Below, one piece after another: positions 1,201 to 18,438 of a DNA stretch of 24,203 nucleotides. The stretch lies in contig JAYGFR010000011.1 of NCBI GenBank assembly GCA_046581755.1, forward strand, positions 1 through 24,203, written 5' to 3'. Within the stretch, counting starts at the first letter, position 1, and the number at the start of each line of letters is the position of its first letter. The DNA is from Nitrospinota bacterium. GTDB lineage: Bacteria; UBA8248. A program made the position numbers and the translations under genes. Below the pieces are notes generated by a model. It made no database searches, was not told where the DNA came from, and saw only the letters and a program-made list of their open reading frames with translations.

Positions 1201-2844
1201 ATGGATAAAAATGCAATTCTCGCCGCGGTTCTTTCGATTGGCGTTCTGGTCGCGTGGGATTATTTTTATATTCGGCCGATACAGAAAAAAAACGCCGCGA
1301 AAAGCCAGGCACGCGCGGAAAAAGAAAAGGCCGCGAAAGCCAAAATGCGCGCCGTGAATCCGCTTGTCCGCGCCGCCCCAGCGTCGCCCCAGCCGGCCAT
1401 GCCGGCCCAGAAAAAACCTGAAACAAAGGCGGTAAGGGAGGTCCGGGTCCGGGTGGATGTGGGTCCCGCCATTTATGAATTTACGAACCGGGGTGCGGCC
1501 ATGGTTTCGGCGCGCCTGAAAAAGTATCTGACCGACGACCTGAAAAGGCCGATTGACCTAATCTCGGAATTGTCCCCGGCGATGATGCCGCTCTATTTCA
1601 AGGGGGGGGATACCGCGGAGCTCCTGAACGGTGCGTCCTTTCAGGTCGAGGGCGGAGACATCACCCTCACCCCCTCCCGGCCCGAGGGCAGGCTCCGGTT
1701 TTTCTACCGCGATAAATCCGGCCTTTTTGCCGAGAAGATTTTGACTTTTCGCTACGACAGGTACGTTATCGGAATGGCTTTGCGGGTGGACCAGCCGAGG
1801 AGCCCGAAACCCATCGGCATCGCCTGGGGCCCCTCTGTGGGCGGCGCCGCCGGGAACGTCTATGGCGGCATCGTCGAGGGGCCGATGAGCTTCATCGACA
1901 AAAGCCTGGAATACGACACTCCCGAACTAGATAAGCCGACCGTCCATGCCAGCGGAACCCGGTGGACCGCCCTCCAGACGAAATATTTTGTTGCGGCCCT
2001 GATCCCCAGGGGTGGAAACGGGCGCTCGGAGATCCGGCGGCTGGGCGGGAAAGACAATAAAATAGACTACGCGGTCATCGGATTCATGCCGGAGGGGGCC
2101 AGAAGCGCGGCCGGATTCGATGTTTATGTAGGCCCGAAGGAAACCGGGAGACTCGCAAAGCTGAACGCGAGCCTCGAAGAGGCACTTGATTACGGAATAT
2201 TCTCTTTTATCGCCAAACCGCTGATGGCCGTGCTCCGGATCTCGAATGCGGTCCTGGGAAACTGGGGCCTGGCCATCATCCTTCTCACCGTTTTGATCAA
2301 GCTGGTTTTTTACCCCCTGACCCAGTACGGCATGCGCAACATGCGCAACATGCAAAAACTCCAGCCGAAGATGACGCAGCTCAAGGAAATCTACAAAGAC
2401 GACAAGAACAGGATGAACCAAGAGGTAATGGCGCTCTACAAGGAAAACAACGTCAATCCCATGATGGGCTGCCTCCCGATGATCGTTCAGATCCCGGTTT
2501 TCTTTGGCCTCTACAATGCCCTGTTGGTTTCGATCGAGCTTCGGCACGCGCCGTTCTTTTGGATTGCGGACCTTTCGGCGCGCGAGCCCCGGCTTTTTCC
2601 CATCCTCACTCTTCTCATGGGCGCTTCCATGTTCGTTCAACAGAAAATGACGCCCTCCGTGGCGGATCCGGCGCAGGCCAAGATGATGATGTTCATGCCC
2701 GTGATGTTCACGGGGATGTTCCTCTACTGGCCCGTTCCCGTGGGGCTGGTGATTTACTGGCTGATGAACAACATTCTTTCGGTCATTCAGCAATATTTCG
2801 TGAACAAATCCGTAACGCCGCCGAAGCTGGCGGAGGAAAATTGA
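1201..2844 (+). CDS. yidC: Membrane protein insertase YidC (with periplasmic domain)
   Basis: N-terminal TM helix, large soluble domain, GNWGLAIILLT, NPMMGCLPMIVQIPVF and QQKMTP motifs; synteny. Confidence 0.97.
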   Translation: MDKNAILAAVLSIGVLVAWDYFYIRPIQKKNAAKSQARAEKEKAAKAKMRAVNPLVRAAPASPQPAMPAQKKPETKAVREVRVRVDVGPAIYEFTNRGAAMVSARLKKYLTDDLKRPIDLISELSPAMMPLYFKGGDTAELLNGASFQVEGGDITLTPSRPEGRLRFFYRDKSGLFAEKILTFRYDRYVIGMALRVDQPRSPKPIGIAWGPSVGGAAGNVYGGIVEGPMSFIDKSLEYDTPELDKPTVHASGTRWTALQTKYFVAALIPRGGNGRSEIRRLGGKDNKIDYAVIGFMPEGARSAAGFDVYVGPKETGRLAKLNASLEEALDYGIFSFIAKPLMAVLRISNAVLGNWGLAIILLTVLIKLVFYPLTQYGMRNMRNMQKLQPKMTQLKEIYKDDKNRMNQEVMALYKENNVNPMMGCLPMIVQIPVFFGLYNALLVSIELRHAPFFWIADLSAREPRLFPILTLLMGASMFVQQKMTPSVADPAQAKMMMFMPVMFTGMFLYWPVPVGLVIYWLMNNILSVIQQYFVNKSVTPPKLAEEN

Positions 2845-2928
2845 TTTGGAGTTTTCGTTTCGGGCGAGAGCCTTGGATGATTCGCCAAAAGACTTTGGGC
2901 AGTTTTACGAAGCAGCGGGAGGCGGCTT

Positions 2929-4044
2929 ATGGCTATGAGATGGAACCCCCGTCGAGGCGGCGATGGCTTTTTCGGGCCGGAGGGATCGGCCGAGGAAGGG
3001 TTTTTGGATGATCGCGAATCCGCCGATTTTTCCGACCTGACTCTTATTTTCCGAATGCCGGACCGCTCGCTTCGCCGCGTCATCGAACGGATGGACATGG
3101 AAACCCTTTCGTTGGCCCTGCGGGACGCGGACCAGGGCATCGTGGACCGTGTCCTGAAAAATGTTTCCGTGCGCACGTCGGTTTCGCTCATGGCGGAAAC
3201 GGAAGCGGGCCACCTGGCCGGACCGGACGATACCGCGGAAGCGCGCGCGTATCTCGTCCGGATGATTTTATCCATGGAAAAAAGCGGAGAGGTGTCTCTG
3301 GATGGCCCGGAGGGGGATCCGGCGCCGCCGATCGATCCGGATCTAAAAAGAATGGCGGGAAGCTTCGCCCAGGAAGAGACCGGGCCGGAGCGGGCGGTCC
3401 GCATGATGATCGCTCTCGCGGCGCGCGCCCACGGCCACGGGCTTATTTCGCTGGAGCCCGTCCTGGAAAGCGTTCCGGAGGGGATCCTGGCCACGGGGAT
3501 TCGCGCCCTCGTGGATCAGATTCCCGTCGAGGAAATCGAGACCGTCATCGGCCGCCAGATCGATTCTTGTTTGTATGCATACGAGCGAAACAACGACATC
3601 GTCATGGAGGGCATCCTCTCCATCGCCGAGGGGTGGGGCGAGGATCGGACCCGCCAGAGGCTGGTTTCCTTTTTGCCGGAAGGGGAGGCGGATTTTCAAA
3701 AACTTCCCGAGATTCGCATGACCCCGTCGGTGCAGTCGGCGAACGATTTAATCCTGGCGTGTTGCCGGCTGGCGGAGCAGATTCGCAGGGAGGGATTCGA
3801 CGAACTGGAGGCCGAAATCCCCGAAGCCGGCGACCCCCTCCTCCGGCGCAGCCTGAAGTGGCTTTGCGACGGTTATCACATCGGCGAGGTCGAGAGAATG
3901 CTCACGCGGCGAACCAGGACGCGGGCCGACAGGGAGCGCCGCAAGCTGGAGATTTTGCTGGAGGGCCTGATCCTCATCCGGGAAGGAAGCGAATCCGCGC
4001 ATATCCAGGAATCGCTCGAGGGATTCCTGGAAGACGAGGCGTGA
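2929..4044 (+). CDS. Soluble fusion protein: FliG C-terminal domain + two MotA cytoplasmic-domain-like repeats
   Basis: aa ~34-124 resemble FliG_C (DRSLRRVIERMD..LSLALRDA..KNVSVR..ILSMEKSGEV). aa ~156-249 and ~273-367 resemble MotA cytoplasmic segments (GLISLE/RREGFDELE, DPLLRRSL..DG, EGILSI..RLVSFL). No TM helix is visible. RBS GGAGG upstream. Confidence 0.75.
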   Translation: MAMRWNPRRGGDGFFGPEGSAEEGFLDDRESADFSDLTLIFRMPDRSLRRVIERMDMETLSLALRDADQGIVDRVLKNVSVRTSVSLMAETEAGHLAGPDDTAEARAYLVRMILSMEKSGEVSLDGPEGDPAPPIDPDLKRMAGSFAQEETGPERAVRMMIALAARAHGHGLISLEPVLESVPEGILATGIRALVDQIPVEEIETVIGRQIDSCLYAYERNNDIVMEGILSIAEGWGEDRTRQRLVSFLPEGEADFQKLPEIRMTPSVQSANDLILACCRLAEQIRREGFDELEAEIPEAGDPLLRRSLKWLCDGYHIGEVERMLTRRTRTRADRERRKLEILLEGLILIREGSESAHIQESLEGFLEDEA

Positions 4045-4706
4045 AATCCACGCCCCCCGAAAACACTGGGTCATTCCGCCGGGCCGGATGCGTCTTCTTG
4101 TCAGCCGGCGGCGCCACCGGATCATGCCTCCCACGAAAGCGCTCCGCGCGATGGGCCTCCGGCGGGGGATGGCGCTCTTGGACTTGGGGTGCGGCCCCGG
4201 ACCCTTTTCCCTGCCGGGTGGTCGGGAAATCCGGCAGGGTCCTGGCCAGCGACACCTCGCCGGCGATGCTGCGGGCGCTGCGGAAAAAATCCAAAGAAAT
4301 CGGCCTTAAAAACCTGCACCTGAAAAAATCGGCCGACCCGGAATTTCTCTTTCCGGACGGTTGCGCCGACATGGCGATGCTCGGGTTTGTTCTTCACGAA
4401 ACTGCCCGGACGGATCGGTTTCTGAGCGAAACGATGCGCACGCTCCGCCCCGGGGGCCGCGCCGTTATCCTGGAGCGGCCCCCGGTGCTCACGGAATACG
4501 GCCCGCCCCTCTGGGCGCGGCTGGACGCCGGGGAGACAAAGCGCATGGTCCGCAAGGCGGGCCTTGTGGTGGAGCGGTCCTGGAGCTTCGACGACGATAC
4601 CTATTTCGTCGTGGCGCGCCGCCCAAGCGGGAAAAAGGCGGCGGGCCCGTTTTCCGGTGCGGCCGAGGCAATCGAAAGGCGCGTTCCCGGAGGCAAAAAG
4701 GCATGA
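4041..4706 (+). pseudogene. Class I SAM-dependent methyltransferase, frameshifted
   Basis: Motif I LDLGCGPG is in the 4088 frame, while VGKSGRVLASDTSPAML..FVLHE..LRPGGR is in the 4041 frame; the switch is near 4214-4217. Confidence 0.75.
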
Positions 4707-12080: not shown

Positions 12081-12473
12081 ATGGCCCGAAACGATAAGAA
12101 TTACGATAAAAGCATCCGCGCGTTCCTGGGAGAGGGGACCGAGTTCAATGGCGTGATTTCTTTCGAGGGAACGGTGCGCGTGGACGGCGTTCTCGAGGGC
12201 GAGGTCATCACGGAAGATACGTTTATCGTCGGCGCCGCTGCGCATGTCACCGCGAACATCCAGGCCGGGGTCGTGATCATCATGGGCCACGTGGAAGGCA
12301 AAATCGAAGCCAAGGAAAAATGCGAAATTCGTTTGGGCAGCCACGTCAAGGGAGAGGTCCACACGCCGAGCATTTATATCGAAGAGGGCGCCGTGTTCGA
12401 GGGCGCTTGCTACATGACGGGAGAAAACGCCCGGTCCGAAGACCAGCTGGCCCCCTCGGTCGAATCCGCTTGA
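12081..12473 (+). CDS. Bactofilin (polymer-forming cytoskeletal protein)
   Basis: Beta-helix repeat pattern FLGEGTEFNGVI..VRVDG..GHVEGKI..IEEGAVFEG; RBS GGAGG. Confidence 0.9.
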   Translation: MARNDKNYDKSIRAFLGEGTEFNGVISFEGTVRVDGVLEGEVITEDTFIVGAAAHVTANIQAGVVIIMGHVEGKIEAKEKCEIRLGSHVKGEVHTPSIYIEEGAVFEGACYMTGENARSEDQLAPSVESA

Positions 12474-12506
12474 TCGGGCCGGCCCGCCTTGCCGGTCCCC
12501 CCTAAA

Positions 12507-13097
12507 ATGAAACGATACACAGGCTCCGTTTTTATTTTCGCATTTTGCGCCATTCTCCCGGCGTTGACGGGAGGGTGCGGCAAGGCATCCCGAATCACCG
12601 TTCCCGGGAGCGCGGCCAAGCCGGCCGTCTACAGTCCGCATCCGGCCAGCGCGGCGTTCAAGGCCCTGCGGCTGGAAAAAGCCGGTTCCATCGTCGTCCT
12701 GAATATCGAGGGCGCGGATCCGCATTCCATCATGACGATCATATACGAATTACTGCTGAGAAAGGGATATGCCGTCCGGGACGTTGGAAAGACGTTCCAA
12801 ATTCTCGTGGACAAAGGCATCTTCCGGTACGGGCCCACCGATTCCAGGATGCTCGAAGAGGCCGCCGGAGCGTTCACCGAGGATATCGGCATTGCCGGCA
12901 GCGTCGAAACGGTACAGGCGAATCCGTTGAAAATACTTCTTGAGTTGTATTGGTACGACCTGAAAAAAAGAAAAAGAATCTGGACGATGAAGGCATCCAG
13001 CACGGGAGCGATTTTCATCGGTGCGCAAAAATATGAGGCCGTGGTCCGGCAGGCCCTGCGCCAGGCGATGGCGGCCGTCCCGCGCGCCGCACCCTGA
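12507..13097 (+). CDS. Putative lipoprotein of unknown function
   Basis: MKR + hydrophobic stretch + LTGGC lipobox-like site; alpha/beta pattern loosely like LpoB/CsgG-type lipoproteins. Confidence 0.6.
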   Translation: MKRYTGSVFIFAFCAILPALTGGCGKASRITVPGSAAKPAVYSPHPASAAFKALRLEKAGSIVVLNIEGADPHSIMTIIYELLLRKGYAVRDVGKTFQILVDKGIFRYGPTDSRMLEEAAGAFTEDIGIAGSVETVQANPLKILLELYWYDLKKRKRIWTMKASSTGAIFIGAQKYEAVVRQALRQAMAAVPRAAP

Positions 13098-15698: not shown

Positions 15699-16538
15699 AT
15701 GCCCACCGCCCGAACCACAGCCAAAGCGTCTGCGCGCCCGTTCATCAAATGGGCGGGCGGCAAGGGAAGGCTCCTCGCCCAGTACGCTCCCCTTTTTCCG
15801 GATGAGATCAGAGATTATCACGAGCCCTTTTTGGGCAGCGGCGCGGTATTTTTCCATCTCAGGCAGCGAATCGGGGGCCGGGCCTTTCTTTCGGACCGGA
15901 TCGGCGAGCTGGTCCGGTCCTTCGGGGCGGTGCGAGATGACCTGGAAGGGGTGATTCGCCACCTCGGGCGGCATGTCTACGAGCGGGGCCACTACTACCG
16001 CGTCCGGTCACAAAACCCCGCTCGGCTTTCGGTGGCGGGCCTGGCCGCGCGCTTTATCTACCTGAACCGGACCGGCTTCAACGGGCTCTACCGGGTAAAC
16101 CGCAGCGGGCGCTTCAACGTCCCCTTCGGCCGGCACACGAACCCCACCATCTGCGACGCGGAGGGCCTCCGGCTGGCCTCCCATGCCCTGGCCGGGGCCG
16201 AGATCGAACAACGCGGCTATCAGAAGCTATCCGGATGGGCCGAGGCAGGCGATTTCGTCTATCTGGATCCGCCCTACCATCCGCTCACCAAGACAGCGAA
16301 CTTCACCTCCTACACGGCCGATCGTTTCGGAGAGGCCGACCAGCGCACCCTGGCCCAGGCCTGCCGGGAGCTAGACGCCATCGGAGCGCGGTTCATGCTC
16401 TCGAACTCGGCCACCCCCCTCATCCGCGATCTCTACAAGGATTTCGACATCCGGCAGGTCTTCGCCGCCCGTGCCATCAACTCCCAGTCCTCAAAACGCG
16501 GCAAAATCCCCGAGGTGGTGGTGCGGAACTACGCCTAG
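15699..16538 (+). CDS. dam: Dam-family (D12 class) DNA adenine methyltransferase
   Basis: KWAGGK, EPFLGSGAV, FNGLYRVN..FNVPFG and YLDPPY; GATC specificity is inferred, not shown. Confidence 0.9.
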   Translation: MPTARTTAKASARPFIKWAGGKGRLLAQYAPLFPDEIRDYHEPFLGSGAVFFHLRQRIGGRAFLSDRIGELVRSFGAVRDDLEGVIRHLGRHVYERGHYYRVRSQNPARLSVAGLAARFIYLNRTGFNGLYRVNRSGRFNVPFGRHTNPTICDAEGLRLASHALAGAEIEQRGYQKLSGWAEAGDFVYLDPPYHPLTKTANFTSYTADRFGEADQRTLAQACRELDAIGARFMLSNSATPLIRDLYKDFDIRQVFAARAINSQSSKRGKIPEVVVRNYA

Positions 16539-16562: not shown

Positions 16563-17146
16563 TCAGCCCTCATCCCTCTGCAGCTCCGGCAGCGCCACTT
16601 TTTCCGGATCGTATCCATCGCTCCTGATGCGGGCGGTGTGCTGTTCGCAGTCGAACACCCCGTCCTCGCCGACAATGGCCATGTCGCAGAATATTTCGAT
16701 GTTGTTTCCGTCCGGGTCGCAAAAATAGAGCGCCCGGTTCTCGCCCCACAGGCCGTCCCCGTCCGGATGGGTGGGGCTGTGGACGACGGGACCGTGGGTC
16801 AGCTCGACACCGTTCTCGCGGAGGTGCTTTTCCCAGGCGTCGAAGGTGGCCTTGTCCTCGACCTCGAAGGCGAAATGGGCGAGGCCGTATTCGACCGAGG
16901 AGCGCGAGTCCACCACCGGCGGTTGCGGGTCGGGCTGGGCCTCGGGGACGTTCATGGCCAGGTTGATGACGTGGTGCAACCCGGTACAGGTCATGAAGTT
17001 TTGCGCCGTGCGCTGCCCCCTGGGGGTGGCGTACGGATGCGCTCGTTCGTCCGGAATCCCAGGATGTCGGTGTAAAAGTGGACCGCCGTTTCGATGTCGC
17101 GCACTTTCAGGCCGACGTGCTGCAGGCCCTTTAGTTCCGGTGGCAT
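16563..17146 (-). pseudogene. VOC family protein (extradiol dioxygenase/glyoxalase-like), 1-nt frameshift
   Basis: ATG 17146 with RBS gives MPPELKGLQHVGLKVRDIETAVHFYTDILGF, which stops at 16991. The remainder (HHVINL..HFAFEV..YFCDPDGNNIEIF) is in another frame. Total length is 584 nt, 1 short of a multiple of 3. Confidence 0.8.
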
Positions 17147-17178
17147 GCCGGCTTCCTCTTTGAATATGGAGCCGCCGA

Positions 17179-17574
17179 TCAGGCTTTCGGCTCGATCAGC
17201 TCGATAACGACCCCGTCCGGCCCCGCCACATAGGCGGCGCGGTTGCCGCTCGGGAGCTCGAACAGGGGCTCGGGAATCTCCCCTCCTTTGGCCGTAACCT
17301 CCCGGAGCATCCCCTCGAGGCCGCCGACCTCAAGGCAGAAATGATCGATGCCGAAGCGTTGTTTTCCGGTGATGGATTTATCGATGGTGTCGCTCTCGCG
17401 CTCCCCGCGGATGTTGAGCATGCACTCGCCCAGGCGCACCCGCACGTTGCGCGCTCCTCGAAGCTCTTCATCCTTGAAAATATTTCCCCCCAGGAATTCG
17501 ACGAACCATTCGGCCGCCGCTCGCGGGTCCGGGCTGATGAGATGAACGTGGTGATAGTGTCCGACTACAGGCAT
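17179..17574 (-). CDS. VOC family protein (glyoxalase-like)
   Basis: HHVHL, GIDHFCLEV and GPDGVVIELIE. Confidence 0.9.
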   Translation of the reverse strand: MPVVGHYHHVHLISPDPRAAAEWFVEFLGGNIFKDEELRGARNVRVRLGECMLNIRGERESDTIDKSITGKQRFGIDHFCLEVGGLEGMLREVTAKGGEIPEPLFELPSGNRAAYVAGPDGVVIELIEPKA

Positions 17575-17642
17575 TTTGCCTCCTTTCCGCCGGGGCCGAT
17601 GTGCCCGGGCGGGGTGCGTGGATATATACCGTTCCTGCGGGA

Positions 17643-18034
17643 TTATTCTTTCAGTTCCAAAATTTCCATAATCACCCTTCGGGTCCCGCGATATAGGCGC
17701 CGCGGTTGCCGTTTGGAAGCTCGAAAAGAAGCTCGGGGATCTCGCCCCCCTTGGCCGCGAATTCCTCCAGCATCTTTTCGATACCGGTGACCTGGAAGCA
17801 TATGTGATCGATGCCGTACCGCTTGCCGGTTTCCGGGGGCGCGACGCTGTCCTCGGGGCGCTTTCCCCGGATGTTGAGGAGGCACTCCCCGAGTTTCACC
17901 TGCAGGTTATGAAACCCGCGCAGCTCCCCGTCCCGGGCGATCTAGCCACCCAGAAATTCGGCATACCATTCGGCGGTCCCGCGGGGGTCCTGGCTGAGGA
18001 GATGAACGTGGAGATAGTTTCCGACGATGGCCAT
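17643..18034 (-). pseudogene. VOC family paralogue with nonsense codon and frameshift
   Basis: MAIVGNYLHVHLLSQDP.. with an in-frame TAG at 17942-17944, then ..GIDHICFQV..GPEG and a -1 shift at ~17675 before VIMEILELKE. Confidence 0.85.
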
Positions 18035-18048
18035 GGACGGTTCCTCTT

Positions 18049-18438
18049 CTATTTATCCTGAATGAGTTCGAACAAAACGTTTTCGGGACCCACGACGAAG
18101 GCGGCCTCGCTGCCGCCCGAGTGATCGAAAATCTCCTCGTCGATCTCGACCCCGTTCGAGCGCATGTGCTCGACCATGCCGGCCAGGTCATCCACGAGAA
18201 AGCAGATGTGATCCAGCCCCGTGGGCTTGGAGCCGCCGGTCTCGATGGGCTTGTCCGTGGGCCGGGGGGTGCGGACGCTTAGTACTGCCTCGCCGATCCG
18301 CACGATGACGTTCCGCGCCCCGCGGGGCTCCTCGCGGCCGATGACTTCTCCGCCGAAAAATCTTCCGAACCAATCGGCGGCCGCCTCGGGGTCCGGGCTG
18401 ATGATGTGGACATGATGGTAGCCGCCGACGATAGCCAT
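18049..18438 (-). CDS. VOC family protein (glyoxalase-like)
   Basis: HHVHII, GLDHICFLV and GPENVLFELIQ; paralogue of its neighbours. Confidence 0.9.
   Translation of the reverse strand: MAIVGGYHHVHIISPDPEAAADWFGRFFGGEVIGREEPRGARNVIVRIGEAVLSVRTPRPTDKPIETGGSKPTGLDHICFLVDDLAGMVEHMRSNGVEIDEEIFDHSGGSEAAFVVGPENVLFELIQDK

Follow-up and report, generated by a model that had tools for sequence, protein, structure and literature searches.

Motor brakes and clutches such as YcgR, MotI, and EpsE are soluble proteins that act at the FliG-MotA interface of the flagellar motor; they use PilZ or glycosyltransferase folds and need a motor. In a cryo-EM study of C. sporogenes MotAB-FliG_C, FliG's C-terminal domain (FliG_C) is reported to be held in a "pincer grip" only between two adjacent MotA cytoplasmic domains (PMC11302681). 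Work on PomA places R88 and K89 on the positive face of one subunit and E96 and D114 on the negative face of its neighbor, with R88 described as indispensable for motility (10.1101/2022.11.25.517900). The partners on the FliG side are given as R281, D288, and D289 (10.1101/2021.01.07.425829).

Here, we analyzed a gene that encodes one FliG_C domain and two MotA-derived units in a single soluble chain of 371 amino acids (P0001). The gene lies in a stretch of 24,203 nucleotides, the whole of which was analyzed and is referred to below as the window. Among described objects, an engineered fusion of C. sporogenes MotA with FliG_C comes closest (8ucs; PMC11302681); in it, FliG_C is tethered to MotA in the same 1:2 arrangement. 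That fusion is a laboratory construct of the full membrane stator whose heads are ring neighbors, whereas P0001 is natural and soluble, with heads predicted to form a swapped pair. Unlike YcgR, MotI, and EpsE, P0001 consists of FliG and MotA copies, has no PilZ or glycosyltransferase match in Pfam, and is encoded by a gene that persists without a motor.

Full-text searches of the open literature, at title and abstract level, returned no description of this natural architecture, in agreement with the preliminary description of the locus, which knew of no characterized protein of the kind. Our claim of newness covers the architecture, for which no known system was found, and not the function. 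The database name carried by homologues is a label derived from one Pfam hit; it misses the MotA units and says nothing of function. A Leptospira paralogue bearing a name of this kind is listed in a transcriptome table (PMC13066512).

Architecture of the gene and its product

The gene and its immediate surroundings comprise the following features:
2929..4044, + strand: gene for the soluble FliG_C-MotA(cyt)-MotA(cyt) protein of 371 aa (P0001), from the ORF, Pfam, NCBIfam, and an AlphaFold2 model
2918..2922, + strand: Shine-Dalgarno-like GGAGG, 6 nt before the ATG of the 371-aa ORF, read from the sequence
2929..3024, + strand: N-terminal arm, aa 1 to 32, acidic, weakly conserved in the alignment, and predicted to be disordered (pLDDT <50)
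3025..3306, + strand: FliG C-terminal domain, aa 33 to 126 (Pfam; VIA match to 9n49_G)
3376..3678, + strand: MotA-derived unit M1, aa 150 to 250, cytoplasmic loop plus C-terminal tail (NCBIfam and profile matches)
3721..4041, + strand: MotA-derived unit M2, aa 265 to 371, with the same excision as M1 (NCBIfam; profile and PomA alignment)
1201..2844, + strand: yidC, the upstream neighbor, context only (named from its translation)
4041..4706, + strand: class I methyltransferase gene, downstream, frameshifted in the assembly, context only

The preliminary description had proposed a FliG_C domain at aa ∼34 to 124 followed by two MotA-like units, and both assignments were borne out. Pfam PF01706 matched aa 39 to 124 with an E value of 7.6e-13 (49.1 bits against a cut-off of 23.3), and phmmer aligned the 371-aa protein with the FliG_C of T. 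maritima (1qc7) at an E value of 4.4e-7. An AlphaFold2 model of P0001 built on a 23-row alignment (mean pLDDT, 84; pTM, 0.78) superposed on FliG_C chains with a VIA Z score of 16 and an rmsd of 1.4 to 1.6 Å over ∼90 residues; on Salmonella FliG (9n49_G), model residues 36 to 125 were placed on chain residues 235 to 324 (90 aligned; rmsd, 1.5). The profile and structure checks proposed earlier gave these HMM and VIA matches; Foldseek with the whole model returned no match at an E value of ≤0.001, with FliG and MotA at the top of its list.

P0001 therefore shares the C-domain fold of FliG (PF01706, TIGR00207; 1qc7, 1lkv, 9n49). The torque helix is aa 81 to 93, in which R82 is equivalent to FliG R281, A89 to D288, and E90 to D289. 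R82 and E90 keep the R281 and D289 charges, whereas the R297 site, G98 in the source copy, is R or K in only 2 of 27 orthologues and has been lost. The D288 site, alanine here, is E in 24 of the 27. FliG_N and FliG_M gave no Pfam match in the 371-aa protein at E values up to 10, and TIGR00207 matched only over model positions 244 to 329 of 338 (31 bits against a cut-off of 226.7). Lacking these domains, it is not expected to bind FliF or FliM; it is fused instead to MotA heads. The genome's true fliG sits between fliF and fliH elsewhere, whereas this gene sits after yidC.

The NCBIfam MotA/PomA/MotP matches span aa 144 to 237 and 267 to 337 (best E value, 9.4e-16) and lie far below whole-protein cut-offs; no Pfam model covers either unit. 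The P0001 model aligned with MotA/PomA chains at VIA Z scores of 14 to 15. Profiles of the units matched the genome's own MotA in two pieces, residues ∼70 to 136 and ∼204 to 243, and B. subtilis MotA and Vibrio PomA gave the identical two-piece split; MotA residues 137 to 203 are missing from both M1 and M2. Each unit therefore runs from the MotA cytoplasmic loop straight into the C-terminal tail and lacks the excised TM3-TM4 hairpin. The earlier view of the units as MotA cytoplasmic loops was thus correct for the loop but has to be extended by the tail and the excision. The cytoplasmic helix bundle of MotA/PomA (NF005997, PF01618; 6ysl, 6ykm, 8brd) is the same, and the RxxG-hydrophobic-LE motif and the tail are kept, as seen in NCBIfam and in the PomA alignment. 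Unlike those proteins, which have four TM helices, P0001 has none, as had been noted (maximum 19-residue Kyte-Doolittle value, 1.03, versus 2.05 for the same genome's own MotA). It also differs in carrying two units per chain and in needing no MotB, which is lacking in genus g3 (see below); no motB was found beside the gene in the window or in relatives' loci. P0001 cannot conduct ions or form a MotA5B2 motor.

A single MotA chain (residues 70 to 249) spans model residues 149 to 371 in the VIA comparison, with ∼150 aligned residues. Since this is more than the length of one unit, we infer a swapped pair: M1 and M2 are predicted to fold such that each head consists of one N-half and the other's C-tail. 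In the single AlphaFold2 model of P0001, an unbroken helix runs through the join of each unit (200 to 234 and 318 to 351), and the swapped pair is joined by two long helices, as read from helix lengths and aligned ranges. P0070, a single-unit protein with a MotA head followed by FliG_C (pLDDT, 93; pTM, 0.82), has a turn at the join, between helices 68 to 82 and 86 to 103, and its residues 16 to 131 hold a whole MotA cytoplasmic domain (chain 70 to 255; rmsd, 2.1 Å). P0049, another single-unit homologue, has a continuous helix instead and would be predicted to require a dimer. With G for FliG_C and M for a MotA-derived unit, Gly or Pro occurs in the join columns of 82% of 45 M-G units and 21% of 28 G-M units, and of 50% and 38% for the two units of 42 G-M-M proteins. 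In a tree of 91 MotA-head rows over 105 columns, the soluble units lie opposite 18 true MotAs with a support of only 54; 41 of 88 forks are open, and a single origin of these units is possible.

By the names given to its translations, the window is a rnpA-yidD-yidC ... mnmE-mnmG-parA-parB region, and its ORF list and translations contain no flagellar gene, as described before; flagellar genes lie elsewhere in the genome. Of 27 relatives' loci, 26 have yidC upstream and in the same orientation, though its adjacency is not constant; the methyltransferase lies 3' of the gene in 23 of 27, and an SDR gene follows in 26 of 27. In both of the two relatives checked, DsbA-like and MauE/DoxX genes intervene between yidC and the gene, so that the yidC link is positional, and we rejected a functional one. 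A promoter and terminator scan gave 3 and 10 sites, none of them informative, where chance would give 1.5 and 7.8. Among 11 metatranscriptome runs listed, chosen for containing the gene, 4 (from four studies) yielded contigs that cover parts of it with few differing letters; in 3 of those 4, a control stretch including intergenic bases was covered too. The protein had no match among plasmids or phages, PADLOC models of antiphage systems (including Zorya, with its MotA-like ZorA) gave 0 families at an E value of ≤0.1 for P0001 and P0021, and no further soluble FliG_C/MotA paralogue was found in the source genome.

Several other features of the window were recorded. The glycine-rich motif of the downstream methyltransferase is in a different frame from the remainder; one RNA-library contig inserts at 4209, and another skips 4444 to 4619. 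A bactofilin gene (12081 to 12473; Pfam E value, 1.1e-26) lies directly 3' of parB and is followed by a 202-aa ORF without a Pfam match (12489 to 13097). A Dam-like adenine methyltransferase gene (15699 to 16538), with no restriction partner nearby by eye, precedes three glyoxalase-like ORFs on the minus strand (16563 to 18438).

Homologues and distribution against the flagellum

A word-based search returned 22 close homologues of 44 to 58% identity (46 to 57% in the search itself), all of the same architecture and uniform length and named in their source as Nitrospinota or Nitrospinae bacterium. When 1.84 billion representatives were searched with a profile, 211 proteins reached an E value of ≤1e-10, of which the best 150 were listed. 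Both domains were present in 153 of 173 retrieved proteins (G-M-M, 59; M-G, 44; G-M, 28), a count favored by a query that itself held both domains; longer arrays reached five M units. In a Pfam scan of 91 of the 149 new homologues, AraC was found in 4 and an ECF-type sigma factor in 2, so that just 6 of 91 carry a transcription-factor domain; TPR was found in 3 and LRR in 2. By names and records, the distant homologues come from Treponema, Spirochaetales, Leptospiraceae, Latescibacterota, and Gemmatimonadaceae, with many of the named ones from spirochaetes, and Atlas clusters with few labeled members add Bacillota and Thermodesulfobacteriota. A locus search with a narrower alignment, in which 24 of 64 parts were scanned, gave at least 80 loci, 10 of them with soluble units; these 10 are solitary genes, with no shared or flagellar neighbors and none beside yidC by eye. 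Atlas leads of 140 to 192 aa suggest that MotA heads without FliG_C also occur, and lone FliG_C proteins of 99 to 107 aa were found.

Further arrangements of these domains were seen among the homologues. Many distant homologues (P0056, P0061, L051 to L053, and L081) begin with a common 80-aa N-terminal domain that has no confident Pfam match and a weak Glyoxalase_8 match in two. In genome G055, a membrane MotA-like gene with hydrophobic segments carries a C-terminal FliG_C fusion (L142:495-1794); it is read in two frames, with one frameshift near 860 to 880, and is a naturally occurring equivalent of the engineered MotA-FliG_C fusion that may represent an evolutionary intermediate. Genomes G051, G053, and G054 (L130 to L158) have 12 to 15 FliG_C matches each; G053, a Latescibacterota record, has several full-length-looking FliG paralogues and a weak, partial flhA match. 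In G058, a FliM domain is fused to FliG_M and FliG_C in a single frame (L166:1-1845).

The source genome (G000) is flagellated: fliF, fliH/I/J, flhA, and two motAB sets lie outside the window, together with two copies of fliG that are broken by the assembly, one of them between fliF and fliH. Our sample comprised 51 genomes of the class, and a search of the phylum gave the same 51. The FliG_C-MotA gene was present in 28, all of one taxonomic family, and intact in 27, and 6 of the 9 genomes with flhA carry it. Profiling against flagellar genes, as suggested in the preliminary description, divided the carriers: 6 of 28 have flhA, but 22 lack it, and 21 of these also lack motA, motB, full fliG, and PilZ. 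Of the 23 genomes of genus g3, 21 carry the gene, in one case frameshifted; several of these genomes are single contigs. Within g3, flhA, motA, the MotB plug, and PilZ were each found in 0 of 23 genomes, and no full fliG was found, the sole fliG match being the gene's own domain. Median pairwise dN/dS in g3 was 0.16 (190 pairs, 20 intact genes), with values of 0.17 for G, 0.15 for M1, and 0.11 for M2. Judged by these ratios, purifying selection acts on the gene in genomes without motor genes, and this selection in flagellum-free relatives argues for a product that is likely a self-contained clasp or switch and not a motor part. By its pattern of occurrence the gene is dispensable, being absent from 4 of 4 drafts of the source genome's own genus (90 to 98% complete), and it is frameshifted in G024. 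Among five distant carriers, three had flhA over the cut-off and one had a partial gene.

The same genomes yielded observations on motor genes outside the window. Near-identical fliG copies broke the G000 assembly at contig ends (C172, C173, the start of C77, and C78; L008, L009, L011, and L012), and the second copy is an orphan that follows, by eye, a protoporphyrinogen-oxidase-like gene. Two fliG copies or pieces are also present in G037, G038, and G042, and G039, G040, and G048 keep fliG without flhA. An orphan motA-motB pair followed by one or two PilZ genes lies at C303:24698-27465 of G000 (L004; order from match coordinates) and in G008, G010 to G013, G040 to G042, G047, G048, and G050; it is kept without flhA in G040, G041, G047, G048, and G050, and may be a non-flagellar stator system. 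The motA of the G000 flagellar cluster (C240:4486-5246; L005) matches in two frames (1 to 213 and 210 to 255), so it is frameshifted or misassembled; two motB-like genes follow it.

Charges at the torque contact

The ratio of one FliG_C to two MotA heads in P0001 is the stoichiometry of the stator-FliG_C contact in the solved structure. Structure and sequence mapping placed the PomA R88, K89, E96, and D114 sites at H168, G169, E176, and D196 in M1 and at R286, R287, E294, and D314 in M2, where all four are charged in the source copy. Together with the anatomy, this mapping upholds the earlier statement that both torque faces lie in one soluble chain. The R82 site is basic in 26 of 27 orthologues, and the E90 site is acidic in all 27. 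In M1, E176 and D196 are each kept in 27 of 27, but R occupies the R88 site in 4; in M2, R287 is kept in 26, but E294 in 9. The torque charges are divided, with the acidic face on unit 1 and the basic-face arginine on unit 2.

A wider set comprised 38 distant G-M-M homologues with the close family removed, gathered by a profile that itself holds the torque residues. In this set the R88 site was basic in 26 M1 versus 35 M2 units (discordant pairs, 1 versus 10; sign test P = 0.012), the E96 site was acidic in 32 versus 17 (17 versus 2; P = 0.0007), and the D114 site was acidic in 35 versus 27 (9 versus 1; P = 0.02), with all P values overstated because kin are not independent. No asymmetry was seen at the K89 site (24 versus 24 of 38). 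M2 is somewhat less conserved than M1 (mean, 22.1 versus 25.7 of 38 over 31 columns), which accounts for part of its loss at E96 and D114. Single-unit proteins retain the positive as well as the negative face (R88, 25 of 28 and 42 of 45; E96, 24 of 28 and 43 of 45).

Within the close family, M2 R286, the PomA R88 equivalent, is present in every flagellated orthologue (6 of 6) and in no non-flagellated one (0 of 21). In all 21 of the latter, the R88 equivalent is gone from both units, and only R287 is left. Complex prediction of FliG_C (aa 30 to 127) with the MotA units (aa 132 to 371), run with no controls, scored 0.36, 0.02, and 0.02, giving a median below the mark of 0.32, and was weighed neither for nor against the contact.

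Candidate roles and their meaning

Taking the sequence, model, and comparative analyses together, we tentatively favor a flagellum-independent FliG_C-MotA clasp that serves as a self-association switch. The protein would reproduce, free of the membrane, the smallest unit of rotor-stator contact and likely works without a flagellum as a reversible clasp; head 1 with its acidic face and head 2 with its basic face are predicted to hold the FliG torque helix between them. Because the swap would line up the heads end to end, closure of the grip would occur mostly from one molecule to another, giving dimers, rings, or short polymers. The output would be the opening and closing of a salt-bridge clasp on a cytoplasmic cue; in the AraC and sigma fusions, the state of the clasp would control the DNA-binding domain. 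The member in the source genome carries no fused output domain. Several observations weigh against the clasp reading: non-flagellated orthologues have lost the R88 equivalent from M1 and M2 alike, the K89 site is not split, M2 is less conserved overall, the R297 site is gone, the gene is dispensable, MotA heads seem to occur without FliG_C, few homologues have a transcription-factor domain, and the 10 distant loci have no obvious neighbor in common. Of the roles listed in the preliminary description, a putative repurposed self-assembling module fits best.

The strongest alternative, though we consider it unlikely, is that the protein is a scaffold or adaptor for an unrelated partner, a stable helical platform in which no FliG-MotA-like contact forms and the charges are retained to serve folding or a new ligand. 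Selection that persists without any motor gene is consistent with such a platform, as are the many invariant positions away from the torque sites (in the linker preceding M1 and at the M1 end, for example), the loss of the R88 site in non-flagellated orthologues, and the TPR and LRR fusions among homologues. However, a scaffold does not predict that the R88 and E96 sites, opposite in sign, should be split between M1 and M2, nor that both domains should occur together in many orders in most retrieved proteins, a count biased by the two-domain query.

A role for the protein as a decoy or brake of the motor, or as a sensor of motor state, appears quite unlikely in flagellated cells. Its MotA heads would bind the C-ring or free FliG, or its FliG_C would cap idle stators, and non-flagellated lineages would retain the gene for a secondary reason. 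The flagellum, two fliG copies, and two motAB sets of the source genome agree with this proposal, as do the flhA matches of distant carriers, the many spirochaetal homologues, and the retention of R286 with the flagellum, a contrast based on few independent lineages. Yet flhA is absent from 22 of the 28 carriers, and 21 offer no motA, motB, or full fliG as a binding target; the gene is missing from 3 of the 9 flhA-positive drafts, and it lies outside flagellar operons in the source family and at the 10 distant loci. That the protein serves as a sink for MotA- or FliG-binding c-di-GMP PilZ effectors is very improbable: several PilZ genes are present in all 7 carriers outside g3, and the orphan motAB-PilZ cluster is conserved in the taxonomic family, but g3 keeps the gene with no PilZ match, and the PilZ-rich relatives G047 to G050, G039, and G040 do not have it. 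A stator-assembly chaperone working with YidC is hardly credible despite the upstream yidC in nearly all loci, as g3 has no stator genes, other genes intervene in relatives, and distant homologues are not beside yidC. Since g3 retains the gene without motor or PilZ genes, none of these three roles, all raised in the preliminary description (the first as a decoy, clutch, or brake), can be the sole one. A non-functional relic hitchhiking in the conserved rnpA-yidC-mnmE region, as the loss from same-genus drafts and the frameshift in G024 might suggest, is largely refuted by dN/dS values of 0.11 to 0.17 in every domain and is also opposed by intact genes in 27 genomes and uniform length over the 22 close homologues.

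In flagellated carriers, the source genome among them, the protein may bind the motor as a side role, given that R286 is kept in flagellated orthologues only. It is possible, although on balance doubtful, that the FliG-MotA torque contact has been lifted from the motor to become a widespread soluble signaling module and that this module forms self-assembling rings or filaments that gate AraC or ECF sigma factors and, in motile cells, relays the state of the motor's own free FliG or MotA to the transcription machinery.

The contact between rotor and stator is transient and membrane bound and is reported to have been solved only through an artificial FliG_C-MotA tether. The gene described here provides a soluble version from nature, likewise 1:2 in composition, whose charged faces are split between the heads; with it, the torque step would become measurable in vitro in its affinity, its geometry, and its salt-bridge code. 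The TM-excised MotA head is a domain without a Pfam model. Its multi-phylum spread with FliG_C, its retention without flagella, and the transcription-factor fusions point to an undescribed non-motility use of motor parts.
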